From: a virus
Taxonomy: Duplodnaviria; Caudoviricetes
Reading direction: 5' to 3' (one strand)
Virus record (IMG/VR): IMGVR_UViG_3300034197_000041
Span: 1 to 45,960 of that record
Length of the DNA stretch: 45,960 bases
Made by a program: the position numbers and the translations under genes. The first letter of the stretch is position 1; each line of letters starts with the position of its first letter. Shown here piece by piece: positions 4,181-45,960 of this stretch. The notes under the pieces were generated by a model. The model saw only the letters and a program-made list of their open reading frames with translations, was not told where the DNA came from and made no database searches.

Positions 4181-5876
4181 GGGCGTCTCGTAGGTAGTTG
4201 GCCTGACGCGTGGGCGCCCGGCGGAAGAGGTGATCGGGCGCCACGGCGAGCGCCAAGCCGTCGCCGTCGTCAGGGCTGCGGCCGTCGTGGCGCTTCTTAA
4301 ACACCTTCTTGGCCTCGAGCTGCTTCACGTCGTAGCCGCCCACCTTGACCCAGTCCCAGGTGCGCTCGCACAGGTCGGCCTCGAGCGCGTCGGGGGGCCG
4401 CTCGAGGGCCAGGGCCTTGAGACTCTCGGCGGCGTGCCAGTACATTTCGGTGCCTAGATCGGCGAACGCCTTCGGGTCGTGGGGGACCCCGTTGTTGTTG
4501 ACCTCGAGCACCTGGTAGTCGAGGAAGGCCCGCGTGAGGTCCTGGTCGCGCCGGAGCTGATCCACGATGCCGCCGCCGTAGCCGCCGCCGCCGTCCACCC
4601 GGATGTGCAGCGAGCTTACGCGCCGGGCCTTGAGCGCGAGCGCCTCACGCTTGACCGTCTGGGCGTAGACCACGGTGTCGAGCTGGGCCAGCCGCGCCGC
4701 CCGGTAGGCCCGCCCGCTGTGGCGCACCCAGACCGCGCCCGCGTCGTCGCCCCACCTGGCCACGTCGACCCCGATGCGGGCCTGGTGCGCGGCCTCAGGC
4801 GCGGGGGCGCGCCGCTTCGCCGCCTCGTAGCGCCCGACGGGGCAGAAGACATTCACAGCGGTGTTGCTCGGCGCGATACCCAGCACGCGGAAGAGGAACT
4901 CGGCGTCGGGCTGGTAGATGATACCGGGGCGCCAGGGCAGCTCGAACGTGTGCTGATCGGGGTCGTGCTGGGCCACCACCTCGCAGTGCCGCGTCTCGCC
5001 GTTGTCGATCATCGACTCGACGTAGTCGCGCATCACGGCGCCCGGCACGATCTCGCGGCCCGCCAGCACATTGGGGTGGGCCAGGCAGGAGATCCGAAAG
5101 TTGACCACATCCACGGCCCCGGCCGCCTTGTGGAACCGGCTGGTGCGCGTGCGCGGGTTGGCCAGCATCACCACGATCGCGATGCCGCCAGAGATCATCG
5201 TGCGGATCGCGTTGAAGACGAAGTCCTCAACGCCCTCGGCCTCGTCGACCACGAAGAGCAGGTAGGGCGCGTGCTGGCCCTGCACGCGCTCCGACCCCTG
5301 GCCGTGCGCGTTGTTGGTGGCGCGCCCCTTCACGAAGTGATCGCCGCTCGTGCTCTTCAGCTCCGGCGTTTCGAGGACGCGCCCCGGGAGCCCGCGCGCG
5401 CGGCGCTGGCTGCGGATCTCCTTGAAGAGCAGATCGTTGATCTGCTCGTAGCCGGGGGCGAAGCAGTAGCCGATCGACTCGTCGAAGCAGTCGAAGAAGT
5501 GGCTCACGATGCCCGCCGCGACCATCGTCTTGCCGACGGTGTGGCCCGCTTCCACGCGCACGGTGCGCCGGATCGTCTCGCCGGGCTGCCAGCAGGTGAG
5601 CTCGTGCGCGGCGAGCCGCTCGGACTCGTAGTCGCGCCGCTCGTGCTGCTGGCGCAGCGCCAGCGCGTAGGCGTCGAGGATCTCGGCCTGGCCGGGGGCG
5701 CCAGGCGTGCCGCGCCATGGCTGCCACCCCAGCTGCTCCGTGATGTAGCGCTCTGGCTCAAAGCGGTAGGCGTCGAAGCGACCCGTAAGCTCGCCGGCCT
5801 CCCGGCGCCGGTGGAGCTCGAGCGCCGCCCGGGCGCGCAGCTGCAGCAGGCTACTGCTGGCTGAGTAGGACAGCAT
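4173..5876 (-). CDS. terL: Terminase large subunit
   Basis: Walker A GHTVGKT, Walker B FVVDEAEG, LANP motif, RNase H-like nuclease motifs IGVDVARWGDD and SPDDGDGLA. Confidence 0.93.
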   Translation of the reverse strand: MLSYSASSSLLQLRARAALELHRRREAGELTGRFDAYRFEPERYITEQLGWQPWRGTPGAPGQAEILDAYALALRQQHERRDYESERLAAHELTCWQPGETIRRTVRVEAGHTVGKTMVAAGIVSHFFDCFDESIGYCFAPGYEQINDLLFKEIRSQRRARGLPGRVLETPELKSTSGDHFVKGRATNNAHGQGSERVQGQHAPYLLFVVDEAEGVEDFVFNAIRTMISGGIAIVVMLANPRTRTSRFHKAAGAVDVVNFRISCLAHPNVLAGREIVPGAVMRDYVESMIDNGETRHCEVVAQHDPDQHTFELPWRPGIIYQPDAEFLFRVLGIAPSNTAVNVFCPVGRYEAAKRRAPAPEAAHQARIGVDVARWGDDAGAVWVRHSGRAYRAARLAQLDTVVYAQTVKREALALKARRVSSLHIRVDGGGGYGGGIVDQLRRDQDLTRAFLDYQVLEVNNNGVPHDPKAFADLGTEMYWHAAESLKALALERPPDALEADLCERTWDWVKVGGYDVKQLEAKKVFKKRHDGRSPDDGDGLALAVAPDHLFRRAPTRQANYLRDAHE

Positions 5877-7787: not shown

Positions 7788-9215
7788 CTAGGCCCCCTGC
7801 CGGAGCGCGGCGACGCCCCGGCGCACGGCGGCCAGATCGACGGCCTTGCCGGGGCACGTCTTCGTCGTCTTCGGGTCGTCCCGGTGGCCGTTGAGCGTGG
7901 CGGTCGTCACGCCGCGCCAGCCGGCCCAGTCATGCAGCGCGGCCAGGGCGCCCAGCGCCAGCGCTGCCGTGCCCGCGTCCCAGCGCTGGCTATCGTAGGA
8001 GCCGATCACCTCGATCCCCCAGTGGGTCGCGTTGAAGGCCGCCGCGTGGATGCCCGGCTCGGAGAGCGGACACATTTGCCAGATGCCACTGTGATCGGGG
8101 TTGGGCGCGCCGCTCACCGCGAAGAGGTGCGGGCCGCGATCCCAGCCGTGCTCAGGGTCGTCGCGGTAGAACTTCGCCATGCTCAGGACGCTGGCTACGC
8201 CGCGCCACGTCGAGGCAAGCGGGCTGACGCTGTGGTGCAGGGTCACGCCGGTGGCCCACGGCGCCGTCTGGGCGTAGCCGTAGCAGGCCAGGTGGCGCCG
8301 GAACGCGCCGACGGTGCGCCACTGCCACACGTCCATCAGGAAGTCGTCGATCCGCTCGGGGTGGTGCGCGGCGGGCGCCACGGCGGGCGCGGGCGCGGCG
8401 CCGAGCGGCGGGCTGGCGTCGCCGAGGGCCTGGAGCGTGGCCGGGCTCAGCCGGTACTGCGCCGGCCCCTGGGCGGCCAGCGTGGGGCGGTCGTCGGCGC
8501 TGTCGAGGTGGTAGAGGCAGGCCACGGGGATCGGGAGCGCCGCCAGCACGTCGGCGTAGCGCGCGCCCCGCGCCGCGTCGGCGAGATCCTCGAAGAGCCC
8601 GAACTCGGTGAGCCAGATCGGCATGTCGCCGCTGACCAGGTCGCGCAGCGCGTGGAGGCCGCTCACCGCCTGCGTCACCGAGTAGGCGTGCAGGCCGAGC
8701 ACATCGCAGCGCCGGTAGGTGGGCGCGGCGATGGCGTCCCAGCGGCGCTGCCCGTCGGCGTGCTCGCCCAGGCGCACCAGGTGGTCGCGCTGGTGCGCCG
8801 GCGCGATCAGGTGGGCGTGGGGGAAGCGCCCGCGGATCGCCGTGATGCTCGCGGCCAAATGGGTCAGGTAGTCCCAGGCGTAGCCCTCATCGGTCGCCTC
8901 GAGCAGCGGCTCGTTGCCGATCTCGATGGCCGCGTCGGCCCGCGCCGACAGCCAGGGCGCGACCTCGTCACAGACCTGGTTGGCGTAGGGCATCGCGCGG
9001 GCGCCGCCGTTGTACGAGGGGTCGCCCCAGCTGGTGCGGACGATCAGGGTCTCGGCCATCGTCGCCGCCGCGCTGATGGCCGCCGGGGTCCAGCCGCCGT
9101 CGAGGCCCCACGCCGGCACGACCTTTAGCACGGTCGCCCGGGCGCGGGCGAGCTGCGCGTGCAGCCAGGCGAGGTCGGGGGCGTGGGTGAGGACCAGGCC
9201 AATCGCGGGGGCCAT
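7788..9215 (-). CDS. Endolysin: N-terminal clan GH-A-like glycoside hydrolase plus C-terminal Amidase_2 (N-acetylmuramoyl-L-alanine amidase)
   Basis: IEIGNEP and IWLTEFG (acid/base and nucleophile Glu), Pro/Ala linker, then VTLHHS, GPHLF, GIEVIG and GHRD...KTCPG zinc-amidase motifs. ATG at 9215 with CAGGAG RBS. Confidence 0.85.
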   Translation of the reverse strand: MAPAIGLVLTHAPDLAWLHAQLARARATVLKVVPAWGLDGGWTPAAISAAATMAETLIVRTSWGDPSYNGGARAMPYANQVCDEVAPWLSARADAAIEIGNEPLLEATDEGYAWDYLTHLAASITAIRGRFPHAHLIAPAHQRDHLVRLGEHADGQRRWDAIAAPTYRRCDVLGLHAYSVTQAVSGLHALRDLVSGDMPIWLTEFGLFEDLADAARGARYADVLAALPIPVACLYHLDSADDRPTLAAQGPAQYRLSPATLQALGDASPPLGAAPAPAVAPAAHHPERIDDFLMDVWQWRTVGAFRRHLACYGYAQTAPWATGVTLHHSVSPLASTWRGVASVLSMAKFYRDDPEHGWDRGPHLFAVSGAPNPDHSGIWQMCPLSEPGIHAAAFNATHWGIEVIGSYDSQRWDAGTAALALGALAALHDWAGWRGVTTATLNGHRDDPKTTKTCPGKAVDLAAVRRGVAALRQGA

Positions 9216-9300: not shown

Positions 9301-9309
9301 AGTATAGCA
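9301..9309 (-). promoter_or_regulatory. Extended -10 promoter (TGcTATACT) for the lysis/packaging operon
   Basis: TGn-TATACT about 85 nt upstream of the lysin ATG, just beyond a terminator. Confidence 0.55.
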
Positions 9310-9339
9310 CAGGGGGGCGAGCGGGGCGTACCAGGGCGC

Positions 9340-9377
9340 AAGAAGCCCCCTGCGACGGTGGTAGCAGGGGGCTTCTT
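9340..9377. terminator. Intrinsic terminator-like hairpin
   Basis: AAGAAGCCCCCTGC-10 nt-GCAGGGGGCTTCTT, perfect 14-bp inverted repeat. Confidence 0.8.
9350..9367. repeat. Dispersed 18-bp palindrome, copy 2
   Basis: CTGCGAC GGTG GTAGCAG, inside the terminator hairpin. Confidence 0.85.
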
Positions 9378-9378
9378 T

Positions 9379-9486
9379 GGTGCAAACCCCTTCAGAGCGG
9401 GGCAAAAGCCAGGAAGAGCCTTGAGGCACGAAGCGGCGCGGATCTCACTGTTTCAAACCCCTTCAGCGCGGGGCAGCGGGCCGGCA
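9379..9486 (-). CRISPR. CRISPR-like mini-array: repeat, one spacer of about 34 nt, degenerate repeat
   Basis: Minus strand TGCCGGCCCGCTGCCCCGCGCTGAAGGGGTTTGAAAC / AGTGAGATCCGCGCCGCTTCGTGCCTCAAGGCTC / TTCCTGGCTTTTGCCCCGCTCTGAAGGGGTTTGCACC. Period 71 nt, 23/26 identity in the core, CCCC..GGGG hairpin followed by an 8-nt TTTGAAAC handle. Confidence 0.75.
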
Positions 9487-9498
9487 TGCCTCCCTCCA

Positions 9499-9527
9499 AT
9501 CCTAGCACGCGCGCGCGCCGCGCGCAA
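9499..9527 (-). promoter_or_regulatory. Sigma70-type promoter driving the mini-array
   Basis: TTGCGC (9527-9522), 17-nt spacer ending in TGc, TAGGAT (9504-9499), about 12 nt upstream of the first repeat. Confidence 0.7.
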
Positions 9528-9611
9528 GGCCCCTGGGAGGCGCTGTGACGATCTCGGCGCCAAGGACACCGCCCCGCCCCGTCGCGGGCCAGGGAGGCCC
9601 GGGGAGCGCGG

Positions 9612-9836
9612 CTAGGCGGGCAGATCACAGTCCGCTCGCGCCTGTGCCCACGCCGCGCGCCGCGAGCGGTGGCGCCGGGTGCGGTAGGTGCCGCGCTCAG
9701 CCCAGAAGTAACGCACGACCACCGGGCCGAACTGAAGATAGCGGCACGTGTAGCCGAAGCCAGCGGCCAGCAGGGCGTCGTGCGCGTCGCTCTCGGCGGC
9801 GCCGTGGGGCTCTGGCTGGTAGAAGAGGGGGCTCAT
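9612..9836 (-). CDS. Small hypothetical protein
   Basis: 74 aa, ATGA-coupled to the recombinase stop. Confidence 0.6.
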   Translation of the reverse strand: MSPLFYQPEPHGAAESDAHDALLAAGFGYTCRYLQFGPVVVRYFWAERGTYRTRRHRSRRAAWAQARADCDLPA

Positions 9837-10774
9837 AGGGGCACGTCTCCCATCGCCTCGCCCGCCGCCCGGAGCGCCCGCTCGCCGCGCCGGTCGTAGC
9901 CGGCGGTGGTGTCGGTGCTGGCGTGGCCGGCGACGCGGGCCGCCGTGGCGAGATCGACGCCGCGATCAAGCAGATTCGAGATCAAGGTGCGGCGCATGTC
10001 ATGCGGCGTGGCGGGCGCCACGGCGGCCTCGGCGCAGCGGCGCAGCAGGACGTAGCGCACGGCGGCCGGCGTCAGGCGCCGGTCGTCGAGCGGGCGCCCC
10101 GTCCTGCTGATCGCGACGAAGAGCGGGCCGGCGGGGCGCGTGGCGGCCCACACCCGCGCCAGGGCGAGGGCGTCGCCGGCCAGGTAGACCGCGCGGTCCT
10201 TGGCGCCCTTGCCCCGCCGCACGGAGAGGCGCCCGTCGGCGGCGAGGTCGGCGAGGTCCAGCGCCGAGAGCTCAGCCCGGCGCAGGCCCCCGGCGAGGCC
10301 GACGGCGAGCAGCGCGGCGTCGCGCCGGCCGCGCGGCGAGGCGTCGGCGGCGCAGGCCCGGAAGAGCGCGGCCACCTCGGCCAGGTCCAGCATGCGCCCG
10401 CGCGGGGCGGCCTGGCCGGCGACGGGGCGCAGATCGACCAGGCGGGCGTAGTCGTCGGCCGAGAGCAGGCCGCAGCGGCGGCAGGCGAGCAGCACGCCGC
10501 GCAGGGCGGCCAGCAGGCGGTTGGCGGTCGCGGGGGCGTAGCGGGCTGCGAGCTGCTGGCGCAGGGCGGCCACCTGGTGCCAGCCCAGATCGTGCCAGGG
10601 GCAGGCGTCGGGACCGGGGCGGCGCAGGAGGGCGGCCAGGGCCTTCAGGGCGGCGGCCTGGGTGGCCGCAGAGCCGGGGGCGAGCGTGGCCAGGTAGGCG
10701 GCCGCAGGCGAGACTTCCTGAAAGTCTTCTTTTCGATCCTGTCGCATCTGGACGCGATCCGCGAGCGTGGCCAT
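9833..10774 (-). CDS. Tyrosine recombinase (Xer/resolvase-like), second copy
   Basis: GLRRAEL (R), VRRGKG (K), TPHDMRR (HxxR) and AGHAS...TTAGY (H, Y) give a complete catalytic set. ATG at 10774 with GGGAG RBS. Confidence 0.9.
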   Translation of the reverse strand: MATLADRVQMRQDRKEDFQEVSPAAAYLATLAPGSAATQAAALKALAALLRRPGPDACPWHDLGWHQVAALRQQLAARYAPATANRLLAALRGVLLACRRCGLLSADDYARLVDLRPVAGQAAPRGRMLDLAEVAALFRACAADASPRGRRDAALLAVGLAGGLRRAELSALDLADLAADGRLSVRRGKGAKDRAVYLAGDALALARVWAATRPAGPLFVAISRTGRPLDDRRLTPAAVRYVLLRRCAEAAVAPATPHDMRRTLISNLLDRGVDLATAARVAGHASTDTTAGYDRRGERALRAAGEAMGDVPL

Positions 10775-10868
10775 GGCGGGCTCCCGGGGCGGCGGCGGGG
10801 CATGGCTCAGCATAGCACGGGCGCAAAGAGCCCCCGGCGAGGGGCGCCGGGGGGCGGGCGGGGCGGTG

Positions 10869-19526: not shown

Positions 19527-20528
19527 CTAGCCCTCCAGTGCCGTCCGCACGGGCTCCGCCCCGTCGAGCCCGTGGGCCCGCCGGTACAGCGCCCGCCGGG
19601 GCTCAATGTCCAGCCCCAGGTAGCGCGCGATCACCGCCGGGGTGTCGTCGCGCAGCAGCTCGCCCACCTCGGCCTTGGACAGCCCGGCCCGCCGGAGCCG
19701 CCGCGCGAAGGCGTGGCGGAAGGCGTGGCACGGACTGCCGCTCGGCAGCGCCACCCCGGCCAGGCGCGCCAGCCGCTTGACCATGCAGCGGATCAGGTTG
19801 GGCGTCACCGCCTCGCCGTTGTTGCGCGACGACACCCCGCGCAGCAGCGGCCCGCGCAGCTCGCCCCGGCGCCGGCTCAGGTAGGCCCGGAGCGCCCGGG
19901 CCGTGCGCGGGGTCCAGAACAGCATCCCCTCCTTGCCCCCGCCCTGGCCCTTCCCGATCACCCGGGCCTGCTCGCGGGCCAGGTCCACATCGCGCTGGAG
20001 CAGCGCCGACAGCTCCGCGACGCGGGCGCCCGTATCCCAGAGCAGCCACAGAATCGCCCGGTCGCGCGCCGACTCCTCCGTGAGCCCGTCGCCGGCCGCG
20101 TCGAGCAGCGCCCGAAACGACTCCTCGCTGATCGCCGGTCGCTCGCGCGTGGGGATGGGCGGCAGCGGGATGCGCCGGCCCCGGAAGGCCGCCCGCTGCC
20201 GCTCGAAGCCCTCATGCTCATCGGCCAGCCAGCCCCACAGCGCCCGCAGCGTCCGAAAGTAGCCGTGCAGGGTCGCCTCGGCCAGGCCCGGCGCGCTCCC
20301 CCGCGCCCCGCGCCCGGGCGGCGCCTCGTCCGCCAGGTGGGCGAAGAAAGCTTTCAGCTCGGCCAGATCCACATCGGCCAGGCGCGGCCCGTGCCCGCCC
20401 GCCGCCCGCCAGGCGAGCCAGCGGTCAAGCTGGGACTCGTAGAGCGTCAGCGTCTCCACCGTGCGCCGCGCCGCGCGCCGATGGGCCAGGAACGCCCGCA
20501 CCGCATCGCACACTATCGTCTCTGTCAT
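19527..20528 (-). CDS. int: Phage integrase (tyrosine recombinase)
   Basis: N-terminal SAM-like domain, DTGARVAEL (R), VIGKG (K), HAFRH (HxxR), IARYL (Y). Adjacent to the tRNA-like attP. Start may lie further upstream. Confidence 0.88.
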   Translation of the reverse strand: MTETIVCDAVRAFLAHRRAARRTVETLTLYESQLDRWLAWRAAGGHGPRLADVDLAELKAFFAHLADEAPPGRGARGSAPGLAEATLHGYFRTLRALWGWLADEHEGFERQRAAFRGRRIPLPPIPTRERPAISEESFRALLDAAGDGLTEESARDRAILWLLWDTGARVAELSALLQRDVDLAREQARVIGKGQGGGKEGMLFWTPRTARALRAYLSRRRGELRGPLLRGVSSRNNGEAVTPNLIRCMVKRLARLAGVALPSGSPCHAFRHAFARRLRRAGLSKAEVGELLRDDTPAVIARYLGLDIEPRRALYRRAHGLDGAEPVRTALEG

Positions 20529-20665
20529 CGTTCCCCGCGGGGTCGGGGCGGGCCAGGCGGCCCGCTGCCTCGGTAGATCGTGGCGCACCCGCGCCGCGCC
20601 TGTGAGATCGGCCCGATCCGTGAACAACACGTTACGCCCCATCCCCTAGCCTACAGGAGGATCGC

Positions 20666-27961: not shown

Positions 27962-28158
27962 CCACCCACGACGCCCGCACCCGCTTCGTCGGCCTCTGCG
28001 AGTTCGAGGCGCTGCTGTGGGACGCGCCGGCGCTCGCCCCGCCGGGGCGCATCGGGCGGCGCCGACCGGGCAGCGCGGTGCGGCCGCCGCCCGACTGGCG
28101 GCAGGAGCGGCGGATGTGGCGCCAGCTGCGCGCCGAGAGGAGCCCTGATCGTGAGTAG
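27949..28158 (+). CDS. Hypothetical protein
   Basis: AAGGAG RBS, MERVTTHD... Confidence 0.5.
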   Translation: MERVTTHDARTRFVGLCEFEALLWDAPALAPPGRIGRRRPGSAVRPPPDWRQERRMWRQLRAERSPDRE

Positions 28159-28477
28159 CGTTGACGACATCCACCGGCGGCTCGACGCGGCGCGCATCCC
28201 GCTGCCGCTCGACAACGCCGGGGCACAGGCTGGCGACCTCTGGGGCGGCGACGGTCGCTTCATCGGCAACATTGACGAGCCGCTGTTCGCCGATGTCATC
28301 GCCGCCGCCGTGAACGCGCTGCCCGCGCTGCTCGCCGTGGCGCGGGCGGCGGCCGCCGTCTGCGGCGAGACGTTCGGGCCGACGACGGACCTCCGGGGCC
28401 GCGTGGCGGGCGGGCCGGATCGCATGGCAGCGCGGCGCGCCGCGCTGGCGGCCCTAGACCAGGTCGATTTCTCGTGA
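28151..28477 (+). CDS. Hypothetical phage protein
   Basis: ADVIAAAVNALPALL motif common in small phage proteins. Confidence 0.6.
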   Translation: MSSVDDIHRRLDAARIPLPLDNAGAQAGDLWGGDGRFIGNIDEPLFADVIAAAVNALPALLAVARAAAAVCGETFGPTTDLRGRVAGGPDRMAARRAALAALDQVDFS

Positions 28478-29058: not shown

Positions 29059-29362
29059 AGGCCGCACCCCGCCCGAGCGGCCCGAGATGCGCACCTTCAC
29101 GGTCACAAGCGGCTACGGCGGCAACACGCGCCGCCCGTTCGTCGGGATCGAAGGCCCAGCGCTGCCGATCACGATGGACAGCAGCGAGGCCCGCGCGCTG
29201 GCGCTGAACATCTACGAGGCGGCGATCACGGCTGAGGCCGACGGCCTGATCGTGGAGTTCTTCACCCGTGAGATTGGCACCAGCCAGGAGGAGGCCGCGC
29301 AGATTCTCCAGAAGTTCCGCGCCTACCGCAAGCGCTGGCGCAACGAAGCGGATATGGCCTGA
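29048..29362 (+). CDS. Hypothetical protein
   Basis: GGAGG RBS, 104 aa. Confidence 0.65.
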   Translation: MKPKGRTPPERPEMRTFTVTSGYGGNTRRPFVGIEGPALPITMDSSEARALALNIYEAAITAEADGLIVEFFTREIGTSQEEAAQILQKFRAYRKRWRNEADMA

Positions 29363-29396
29363 TCCACGCCCGCATAGCGAAAGTACAGAGGTTCCA

Positions 29397-30716
29397 ATGA
29401 GTGCAGGACACGGCCCGAACATCGGCCACGGCTACGTGAAGTACGTGATCATCGACCCGGCAGGGGTCGAGCTCCCCCCGGTCGTCTTCCCCGCCCAGAT
29501 CGCCCGCGCGGCCCGCGCCGTCGCCGGGGGCCTCGTCGAGGCCCGCCACGTCCGCGTCGGCGACGTGGCGTACTGGACCGGCGACGATGCCGGCCTGGCG
29601 CCCTCGCCGATCACGATGCTGGCGCAGGAGCGCCTCGGCGACCCCACCTTCATCCCCGCGCTCGTGGCGGGGGCGCTCGATAGGTTTGGGTGTTTGAATG
29701 GATCGTCCGTCGGGCAGTGCGTGACCGGGCTACCCGCGACCTGGGCTGAGCAGGGCGATTCGTGCCGCGCGCTGGGCCAGCGGCTGCGCGACGCCTACCC
29801 CTACGAGCGCATCCGCGTCATCGCGGAGCCGCTTGGGCTCGCGTATAGCGCCATCCTTGATAACGACGGCCAGGTCGCGGGCGACACCGTGCTGACTGAG
29901 GGTCGCATAGGAGTTGTAGATCTCGGCCACCACACCGTGGACGTAGCCGAATTGCTGAAACTCGCCGTGGCCAAGGGCTCCTTTGGCACCTGGCAGCAGG
30001 GTACTGCGACCCCGCTCCGCCAGATCCAGGCTCGGCTCTCCGCGTCCTTTGAGCGCGAGCTGAGCCTGGCCGAGACCGATCAGGCGGTCAGGGGCGAGGG
30101 CCTTTTTGTGCACGGGGATTGGTTTCCCTTGCCGCAGGGATGGGATCGGCCATTCGTCGAGCAGAGTCAGATTATCCTCGCGCGCCTGCGCGAGGTGTTT
30201 GGGCGCGGTGGGCGCCTTGATGCAATCCTGGTGGGCGGCGGAGGGGCAGAGGAGCGGCGTATCGTCGAGCCGATTTTGGCATATTACCCGCACGCGCGGA
30301 TCGTCCCTCAGCCGCAGACGGCGATAGCCCGCGGCTACGCCCGCCTCGCCCGACGCCTAGGGCGGCGCCTGAGCGAGGAACCAGGTGAGGCGCCGCCACG
30401 AACGACCTACCGGATGACCTCGGGCGATAACTACCGAGCGCGCAAGGCTGGCGCCCAGGGGGAGATTACAGACATCGAGTGGGATACGTTGCGCGCTCGT
30501 TTTGGGGGGCGTTGTGTTGGTTGCGGGCAGGTTGGTGCGGGGATGGACCACATCGTTCCGCTGTCTCGAGGCGGAATGCATACGATCGACAATATCCAGC
30601 CGCTGTGCCAGTCCTGCAACTCTGCGAAACGCAATGAGATCATCGATCTGCGGAACAGGCCATTTCCCGGCCCGGGCTGGTACAACCTCTGGAAGCGCGG
30701 GAAGCTTGAGCTATGA
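29397..30716 (+). CDS. ParM/StbA-like actin-fold protein fused to a C-terminal HNH endonuclease domain
   Basis: NIGHGYVK (phosphate 1), TGLP, IAEPLG, VVDLGHHTVD (phosphate 2), LVGGGGA (adenosine) and PQTAIARG, then CVGC...DHIVPLSRGG...NIQPLCQSCNSAK in one uninterrupted frame. Confidence 0.85.
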   Translation: MSAGHGPNIGHGYVKYVIIDPAGVELPPVVFPAQIARAARAVAGGLVEARHVRVGDVAYWTGDDAGLAPSPITMLAQERLGDPTFIPALVAGALDRFGCLNGSSVGQCVTGLPATWAEQGDSCRALGQRLRDAYPYERIRVIAEPLGLAYSAILDNDGQVAGDTVLTEGRIGVVDLGHHTVDVAELLKLAVAKGSFGTWQQGTATPLRQIQARLSASFERELSLAETDQAVRGEGLFVHGDWFPLPQGWDRPFVEQSQIILARLREVFGRGGRLDAILVGGGGAEERRIVEPILAYYPHARIVPQPQTAIARGYARLARRLGRRLSEEPGEAPPRTTYRMTSGDNYRARKAGAQGEITDIEWDTLRARFGGRCVGCGQVGAGMDHIVPLSRGGMHTIDNIQPLCQSCNSAKRNEIIDLRNRPFPGPGWYNLWKRGKLEL

Positions 30717-45768: not shown

Positions 45769-45960
45769 CAGGCGCCCCCGATCTCGTTGGTCACCGTGCC
45801 GTTGGACGCGACCGTGACGCGCTGCGCCGGCGGGGGCGTCGGATCTGGGGCGGCGGGCGGCGGGGGCGGCGGGGCTGCGACGGCGGTCGCAGGCGCTGCC
45901 GGGGGCGCCTCCGGGGCGCGGGGCAGCGACGGGGCGGGCGGGGACTCGCCGAGCGGGGCC
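45768..45960 (-). CDS. Pro-rich repeat protein, 3' part (...QRVTVASNGTVTNEIGGA*)
   Basis: Its TGA (45770-45768) overlaps the ATG of the next head-completion gene (TGATG coupling). Confidence 0.75.
   Translation of the reverse strand, partial: APLGESPPAPSLPRAPEAPPAAPATAVAAPPPPPPAAPDPTPPPAQRVTVASNGTVTNEIGGA
45875..45892. repeat. Dispersed 18-bp palindrome, copy 7
   Basis: CTGCGAC GGCG GTCGCAG. Confidence 0.85.
45901..45960. repeat. End repeat identical to 30-89; indicates a circular/complete genome opened inside a tandem repeat
   Basis: Exact 60-nt match read directly from the sequence. Confidence 0.92.

Follow-up and report, generated by a model that had tools for sequence, protein, structure and literature searches.

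Results

A repeat-spacer cassette between a lysin gene and an integrase-family gene

The window, that is, the whole stretch of DNA analysed here, is the whole of virus record IMGVR_UViG_3300034197_000041, with a length of 45,960 bases and a GC content of about 72%. On its minus strand, between an amidase-domain lysin gene and a tyrosine integrase-family gene, lies a small cassette in which two repeats enclose a single spacer, with promoter-like letters on one side and a stable hairpin on the other (Table 1). The repeats with their hairpin and handle, the 34-nt spacer, the 71-nt step and the 14-bp hairpin, all of which an earlier note had described from the letters of this DNA, were recovered on the minus strand where that note had placed them. 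Repeat 1, whose length of 37 nt is assumed from the length of host repeats, retains an intact handle at 9457-9450 (TTTGAAAC, 8/8), and repeat 2 ends in TTTGCACC. Two copies of the repeat core are present in the window, compared to an expectation of 0.01, and none of 100 shuffled sequences reached two.

Table 1. Features in and around the cassette, listed in the direction of its predicted transcription
Feature	Position	Strand	Remarks
Tyrosine integrase-family gene	9833..10813	-	upstream flank of cassette; PHROG 1, PF00589; 79% identical to L058
74-aa ORF, no family match	9612..9836	-	directly upstream of cassette; GC3 0.87
-35-like hexamer, TTGCGC	9522..9527	-	weak, 3/6; L058 has TTGCTG at equal 17-nt spacing
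Extended -10, TG-n-TAGGAT	9499..9507	-	17 nt after -35; L058 counterpart TG-n-TAGTAT
Predicted RNA 5' segment	9476..9492	-	short leader and variable 5' part of repeat 1
Repeat 1	9450..9486	-	hairpin 9473-9458 (CCCC 9473-9470 / GGGG 9461-9458)
Spacer, single, 34 nt	9416..9449	-	between repeats 1 and 2
Repeat 2, terminal type	9379..9415	-	hairpin 9402-9387 intact; degenerate handle; 71 nt after repeat 1
14-bp hairpin	9340..9377	-	-29.7 kcal/mol; short U-tract
Second extended -10, TG-n-TATACT	9301..9309	-	outside cassette; identical in L058
Amidase-domain lysin gene	7788..9215	-	downstream flank of cassette; PHROG 1493, PF01510; 72% identical to L058

The array occupies the space from start site to terminator nearly without spare sequence. 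No leader precedes repeat 1, and the predicted transcription start, placed near 9492 from the position of the -10 box, lies ~6 nt upstream of this repeat. The earlier claim that the cassette has a promoter and a terminator of its own can be upheld in part: the letters are present and are conserved in the sister phage L058, but a plain consensus scan called 0 promoters and 0 terminators at the cassette, where the -35 hexamer is weak and the U-tract short. As the scan is silent, both assignments rest on conservation in L058; the 14-bp hairpin is likely the terminator, and the second extended -10 likely serves the lysin gene as its promoter. The virus is present in five peat DNA runs of 2020, two of them flagged as possible sources. 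In 4/4 DNA runs, with one contig per run, positions 9340-9530 agree letter for letter; these are all peat runs of 2020 and possibly the source of the record itself. The cassette is therefore not an assembly artefact.

The phage encodes head, portal, terminase, tail and lysin proteins, together with two integrase-family genes at 9833-10813 and 19527-20642, a pair within a 46-kb phage. The absence of cas genes that the earlier note had reported holds for the 72 ORFs put through PADLOC, which gave 0 matches to cas families (291 ORFs of at least 50 aa, mostly overlapping, are listed in the window). Near the cassette we identified no acr-like gene, and Rfam families yielded 0 matches in the window. 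The 74-aa ORF directly upstream is missing from L058 and is found in a relative from run X2. A 482-aa protein at 29268-30716 combines an HNH domain with a weak actin-like (partition) region. The window ends (1-120, 45840-45960) overlap by 29 nt; a circular phage genome is plausible from this, but the overlap falls within a ~60-nt repeat.

The N-terminal domain of the lysin was matched in 15/167 Chloroflexales genomes, with the best match (323 bits) on contig G007:C4, which moreover aligns to the window at 69% over 1.2 kb and at 81% over 0.8 kb. Lysin matches and alignment together make a Chloroflexales bacterium the likely host.

The repeats belong to a family found at Chloroflexales type III loci

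The earlier note had expected the repeat to find a near match among CRISPR repeats of the host lineage, and this was borne out by real Chloroflexales arrays: the 3' core of repeat 1 matches the repeat of L014 at 26/26 positions (31/37 overall), and the core of repeat 2 matches Chloroflexales repeats at up to 24/26. A 25-nt core pattern returned 29 loci in 17 GTDB assemblies (12 labelled Chloroflexota), including many long arrays, with up to 72 copies at a spacing of 71-78 nt. The period of 71 nt is short, but inside this host range, being found in 6/257 host units, whose mode is 74. Since the 323-bit lysin homologue also lies on a Chloroflexales contig, phage and repeat are tied to one host group. 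The whole of repeat 1, allowing 3 mismatches, was found in 0/167 Chloroflexales genomes, so the true host is absent from the genomes searched. In run X4, a 104-nt contig matches repeat 1, while its 5' part and the letters that follow downstream differ, and we read it as a putative cognate host unit in the same habitat.

The conservation of the core does not extend to the 5' 11 nt, where the phage repeats reach at best 5/11 and 7/11 against host repeats and agree with each other at 5/11. From these differing 5' parts and the lost handle, the earlier note had argued for a regulatory or decoy role. The argument is weak, because host repeats of the family show both features: 17 distinct host repeats have a mean agreement of 3.8/11 in the 5' 11 nt versus 24.4/26 in the core, and at the ends of host arrays the hairpin is often retained in a repeat whose handle is gone (L008, L015, L019, L022, L023, L027). 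The degeneracy of the phage repeats is thus ordinary for the family.

All three host loci with effector genes (3/3) are of type III, namely III-D at G002:C814 and G005:C15, and III-B at G128. Three further loci (G001:C71, G002:C810, G019) have only RT, cas1, cas6, Csx1 or CARF-TM genes, and the six host loci scanned gave no match to a type I effector gene, with typing based on 53/110 and 50/58 candidate ORFs. The repeat may also be shared with a type I system elsewhere in the host.

Several host loci show peculiarities of their own. Differing 5' 11-nt segments are mixed within one array in L005, L007, L010, L018 and L027, and the three repeats of L010 are all unlike in this part. A lone repeat (L093:1244-1269) sits inside the III-D operon of G002:C814, between cas7 and csx19, and at L020:4600-5275 duplicated blocks that are not spacers interrupt a host array, where short tandem units follow truncated repeats. 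Among IMG/VR viruses, the repeat gave 2 single matches, both reading as coding sequence, and a looser pattern gave 3 loci, consisting of two long arrays on one contig and a lone repeat. The two arrays (L054 and L056) carry a related repeat with 15 and 8 matches; the lone one (L055:2001-2024) is a single related repeat in an intergenic-looking stretch of an AT-rich contig, and possibly a solitary repeat unit.

The transcribed part is replaced in a sister phage

L058 shares with the window the upstream region and the extended -10 and, further on, the hairpin, the second promoter and the beginning of the lysin gene, but between the -10 and the hairpin it has ~400 unrelated nucleotides. The similarity breaks off 3-4 nt beyond the -10 box and is regained at the stem of the hairpin, which is homologous to 9340..9377 and has altered outer and inner pairs. 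These breakpoints support the predicted promoter and terminator and indicate that the transcribed part alone has been exchanged, which marks the site as a putative exchangeable RNA slot between conserved promoter and terminator.

The L058 insert (5098-5520 (+)) looks non-coding, with flat GC across frames, and, with the terminator included, it folds better than 100/100 shuffled sequences (z -2.97). Rfam returned only sub-threshold hairpin matches for it, and searches among phages, plasmids and 167 or 401 genomes only short, hairpin-level ones (one in G376). We regard it as a candidate for an undescribed phage RNA of ~400 nt. In the abundant X2 relative (record 6, depth 70), 530 letters replace 328 at the joint 9312-9641, and this stretch has no match to the repeats at 80%. 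The distant relatives L032 and G007:C4 have other genes at the slot, in G007:C4 upstream of its lysin gene.

Searches for more sisters returned 1 close relative among 7 with the integrase, 3 distant relatives with the lysin, all without repeats, and 28 loci with the promoter motif, of which only the L058 contig is related to the phage; a metagenome scan with a lysin alignment confirmed 0/301 stretches. The mini-array was seen in one phage lineage only. No second mini-array with a different spacer was found among these, and thus no sign of spacer turnover.

Spacer searches find no target

The earlier note had looked to phage, plasmid and host genomes, and to cas loci, for a match to the spacer, and none was found. 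INPHARED phages and PLSDB gave no target, IMG/VR gave 19 and 12 short matches of at most 25/34 and 24/34, and JGI metagenomes contained 0 exact 22-mers; these collection scans need exact words and would thus miss a diverged target, and relatives are sparsely sampled. At 3 mismatches, the spacer was found in 1/167 and 0/167 Chloroflexales genomes, compared to 2 and 0 for the controls. Nothing above shuffle level was found in related phage contigs or in nine host stretches that include or adjoin cas loci, contigs of the peat runs had no match at 80%, and a repeat-spacer junction like that of the phage was present in 0/167 host genomes. Within a hydrogenase-like operon (read by eye), a 22/25 match to the spacer was rejected as being at control level. 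Likewise, 257 host spacers compared with the phage gave 17-nt matches at best and no protospacer.

One match lies within the phage itself. Nucleotides 1-25 of the spacer fit the start of ORF 28151-28477 (28179-28203) at 20/25 positions, antisense and in frame, a level that natural-sequence controls reach in 7/300, 2/131 and 2/80 cases (p about 0.02). Among 7 homologues of this ORF, 0 shift toward the peptide implied by the spacer, the mismatched residues being mostly Leu and Pro; the family was found in 0/59 viral stretches and with 1 weak match in 167 genomes. Because the homologues give no backing, the self-match is probably due to chance.

Both repeat stems form in the predicted RNA, and its 5' segment may pair with the spacer

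In the predicted 155-nt transcript both repeat stems form, with pair probabilities of 0.99 for repeat 1 and 0.97-0.98 for repeat 2, and cuts at the two stem bases would yield 71 nt. What a single guide requires, namely both stems and the first handle, is intact. The 5' segment of the predicted RNA, 17 nt in length, would form a duplex of -23.1 kcal/mol with the spacer, matched in quality by 7/1000 spacer shuffles and 33/1000 leader shuffles; this pairing came to notice only post hoc, and it presupposes the inferred start site. It would enclose the first hairpin. It may aid the folding of this hairpin, mask the guide, or have arisen by chance, and it could hinder crRNA loading.

Discussion

Judged by its letters, the cassette is a phage-borne mini-array with one spacer and two repeats of a Chloroflexales type III family. 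As to what it does, we give about even chances to the explanation that the host type III system gains from it a single guide directed at RNA of a rival element. All steps beyond the anatomy we infer as follows. A ~155-nt RNA would be transcribed from about 9492 to the terminator, and host Cas6 would cut it at the base of both hairpins, releasing one 71-nt crRNA composed of the 8-nt handle, the 34-nt spacer and 29 nt of repeat 2. Type III systems target RNA, need no PAM and trim the 3' ends of their crRNAs; after such trimming, a complex of type III-D or III-B would take up the phage crRNA. A complementary transcript from a rival phage or other mobile element, once paired with the guide, would be cleaved, and target recognition would start cyclic-oligoadenylate signalling to the CARF effectors encoded beside host arrays, with superinfection exclusion as the outcome. 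As there is no upstream leader, Cas1-Cas2 would not supply new spacers here, and recombination would be the only way for the spacer to change. The expectation of a rival element as the target comes from what has been described of other mini-arrays: the spacers of viral ones mostly target related viruses (PMC11656645, PMC6858448), and in Thermus, type III mini-arrays with one spacer, carried by plasmids, confer protection and act in trans (PMC7515739).

It is possible, if rather unlikely, that the RNA instead serves as a decoy, which, once cut by host Cas6, would keep this enzyme and the backbone subunits of type III occupied with a guide lacking any useful target, thereby lowering host immunity against the phage. 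The failure of all searches to find a target for the spacer would fit, but most spacers of any array are without a database match anyway. The 5' segment, moreover, is predicted to mask the spacer and to stay paired with it after the first cut, a pairing that was, however, noticed post hoc and that presupposes the inferred start. The conserved promoter is dedicated to the cassette, as one would wish for a decoy, yet the RNA has the handle, spacer length and second hairpin of an ordinary crRNA, and an accompanying acr-like gene was not identified nearby. A decoy role is kept open by the report that a non-targeting crRNA weakened type I-F interference by competition (PMC10651486); the same source reserves the name Racr for solitary repeat units and treats cases with two repeats separately, as mini-arrays. 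We consider it doubtful that, within a Chloroflexales phage family, promoter and terminator drive alternative weapons in the same conflict, a spacer-masked guide that inhibits type III immunity in one phage and a ~400-nt structured RNA in the other.

Improbable, in our estimate, is a relic, in which the RNA slot would have captured the trailer of a host array, that is, its last spacer and terminal repeat, now decaying without function. The resemblance of repeat 2 to terminal host repeats, the poor fit of both phage 5' parts to host repeats, and a slot that is filled otherwise in L058 and in the X2 relative, with the array in one lineage only, would all agree with such an origin. However, the array fills the space from start to terminator, its two stems and its first handle have been kept intact, and the 4/4 runs agree throughout.

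Slightly less probable still is a guide that acts on a transcript of the host or of the phage itself, lowering its level through partial pairing, with type III cleavage short of full activation. The antisense, in-frame fit of the spacer to ORF 28151-28477 could point in this direction, but 0/7 homologues of the ORF approach the implied peptide, the nine regions at or beside host cas loci hold no match above shuffles, and none of the 167 host genomes has a similar repeat-spacer junction. Repression of a cas promoter, as the earlier note had suggested, is unlikely, as it would need a DNA-binding effector and the cognate systems are of type III, which target RNA and use no PAM, although phage mini-arrays that repress type I cas promoters have been described (bioRxiv 2023.03.03.530964).

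Finally, it is very improbable that the duplication is a protein binding site, as its position near an integrase gene might suggest, a product of chance, or part of an mRNA for a 31-aa peptide (ATG at 9487; open frame of 31 codons, 9487-9392), given that long host arrays have this core as their CRISPR repeat, a finding which together with the core counts largely refutes the unrelated binding site that the earlier note had named as its alternative, that shuffling excludes chance, and that the GC3 of the frame is 0.69 as against 0.87-0.96 for neighbouring genes.

The cassette extends an already known trick, the virus-borne mini-array, to the type III systems of Chloroflexales, and it assigns a host group to a peat phage. 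In the literature searched, with supplementary lists of viral mini-arrays outside its scope, we found no report of a mini-array in a Chloroflexota phage. A type III guide is a costlier weapon than a type I guide, because recognition can trigger CARF effectors that harm the phage's own host cell; if a target were proven, this would be a phage turning the abortive immunity of its host on rivals. The swapped insert marks the likely ends of the RNA and points to a second RNA candidate of ~400 nt in L058. Of all parts of the system, it is the exchangeable RNA slot that most deserves further attention.

Comparison with known systems

Virus-borne mini-arrays are known from the Saccharolobus viruses SPV1 and SPV2 (PMC6858448) and from the phages of Faure et al. 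2019, to which PMC11656645 and PMC6858448 refer. As in the cases described in PMC6858448, the cassette has one spacer and host-lineage repeats, is without cas genes and is intergenic; it shares the lack of a leader with the phage cases given there. Unlike SPV1/SPV2 and the phages of Faure et al., its cognate system is of type III, with RT-cas1 loci, in Chloroflexales. It further differs from virus-borne mini-arrays in that its repeats match in the 3' 26 nt only, that its spacer has no target found in a related virus, and that it occupies a slot which holds another insert in L058.

With the Racrs, as far as the available text of PMC10651486 describes them, the cassette has in common a repeat-like hairpin just 3' of its own predicted promoter, in a phage of temperate type, and this hairpin would bind Cas6. 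That text covers tests on types I and V and nowhere uses the term 'type III' (0 occurrences; PMC10651486). Where a Racr is a solitary repeat, the cassette comprises two repeats 71 nt apart, a full-length spacer and an intact 5' handle.

Regulatory mini-arrays of cas loci go by the names CreA and CreR. Like those described in bioRxiv 2023.03.03.530964, the cassette has two diverged repeats, of which the spacer-proximal parts are best kept, and a spacer 2-3 nt below the host mode. Those mini-arrays, according to the same source, use DNA-binding type I systems on cas promoters with a PAM, whereas the system of the cassette is of type III; for the cassette, neither a host twin nor a match at a cas locus was found in the genomes searched.

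The III-D and III-B arrays of Chloroflexales, finally, differ from the cassette, which is without leader or cas genes, has one spacer and resides in a phage, but they share with it the core, the hairpin, the 8-nt handle and the decayed terminal repeat, and their range of periods includes its 71 nt.
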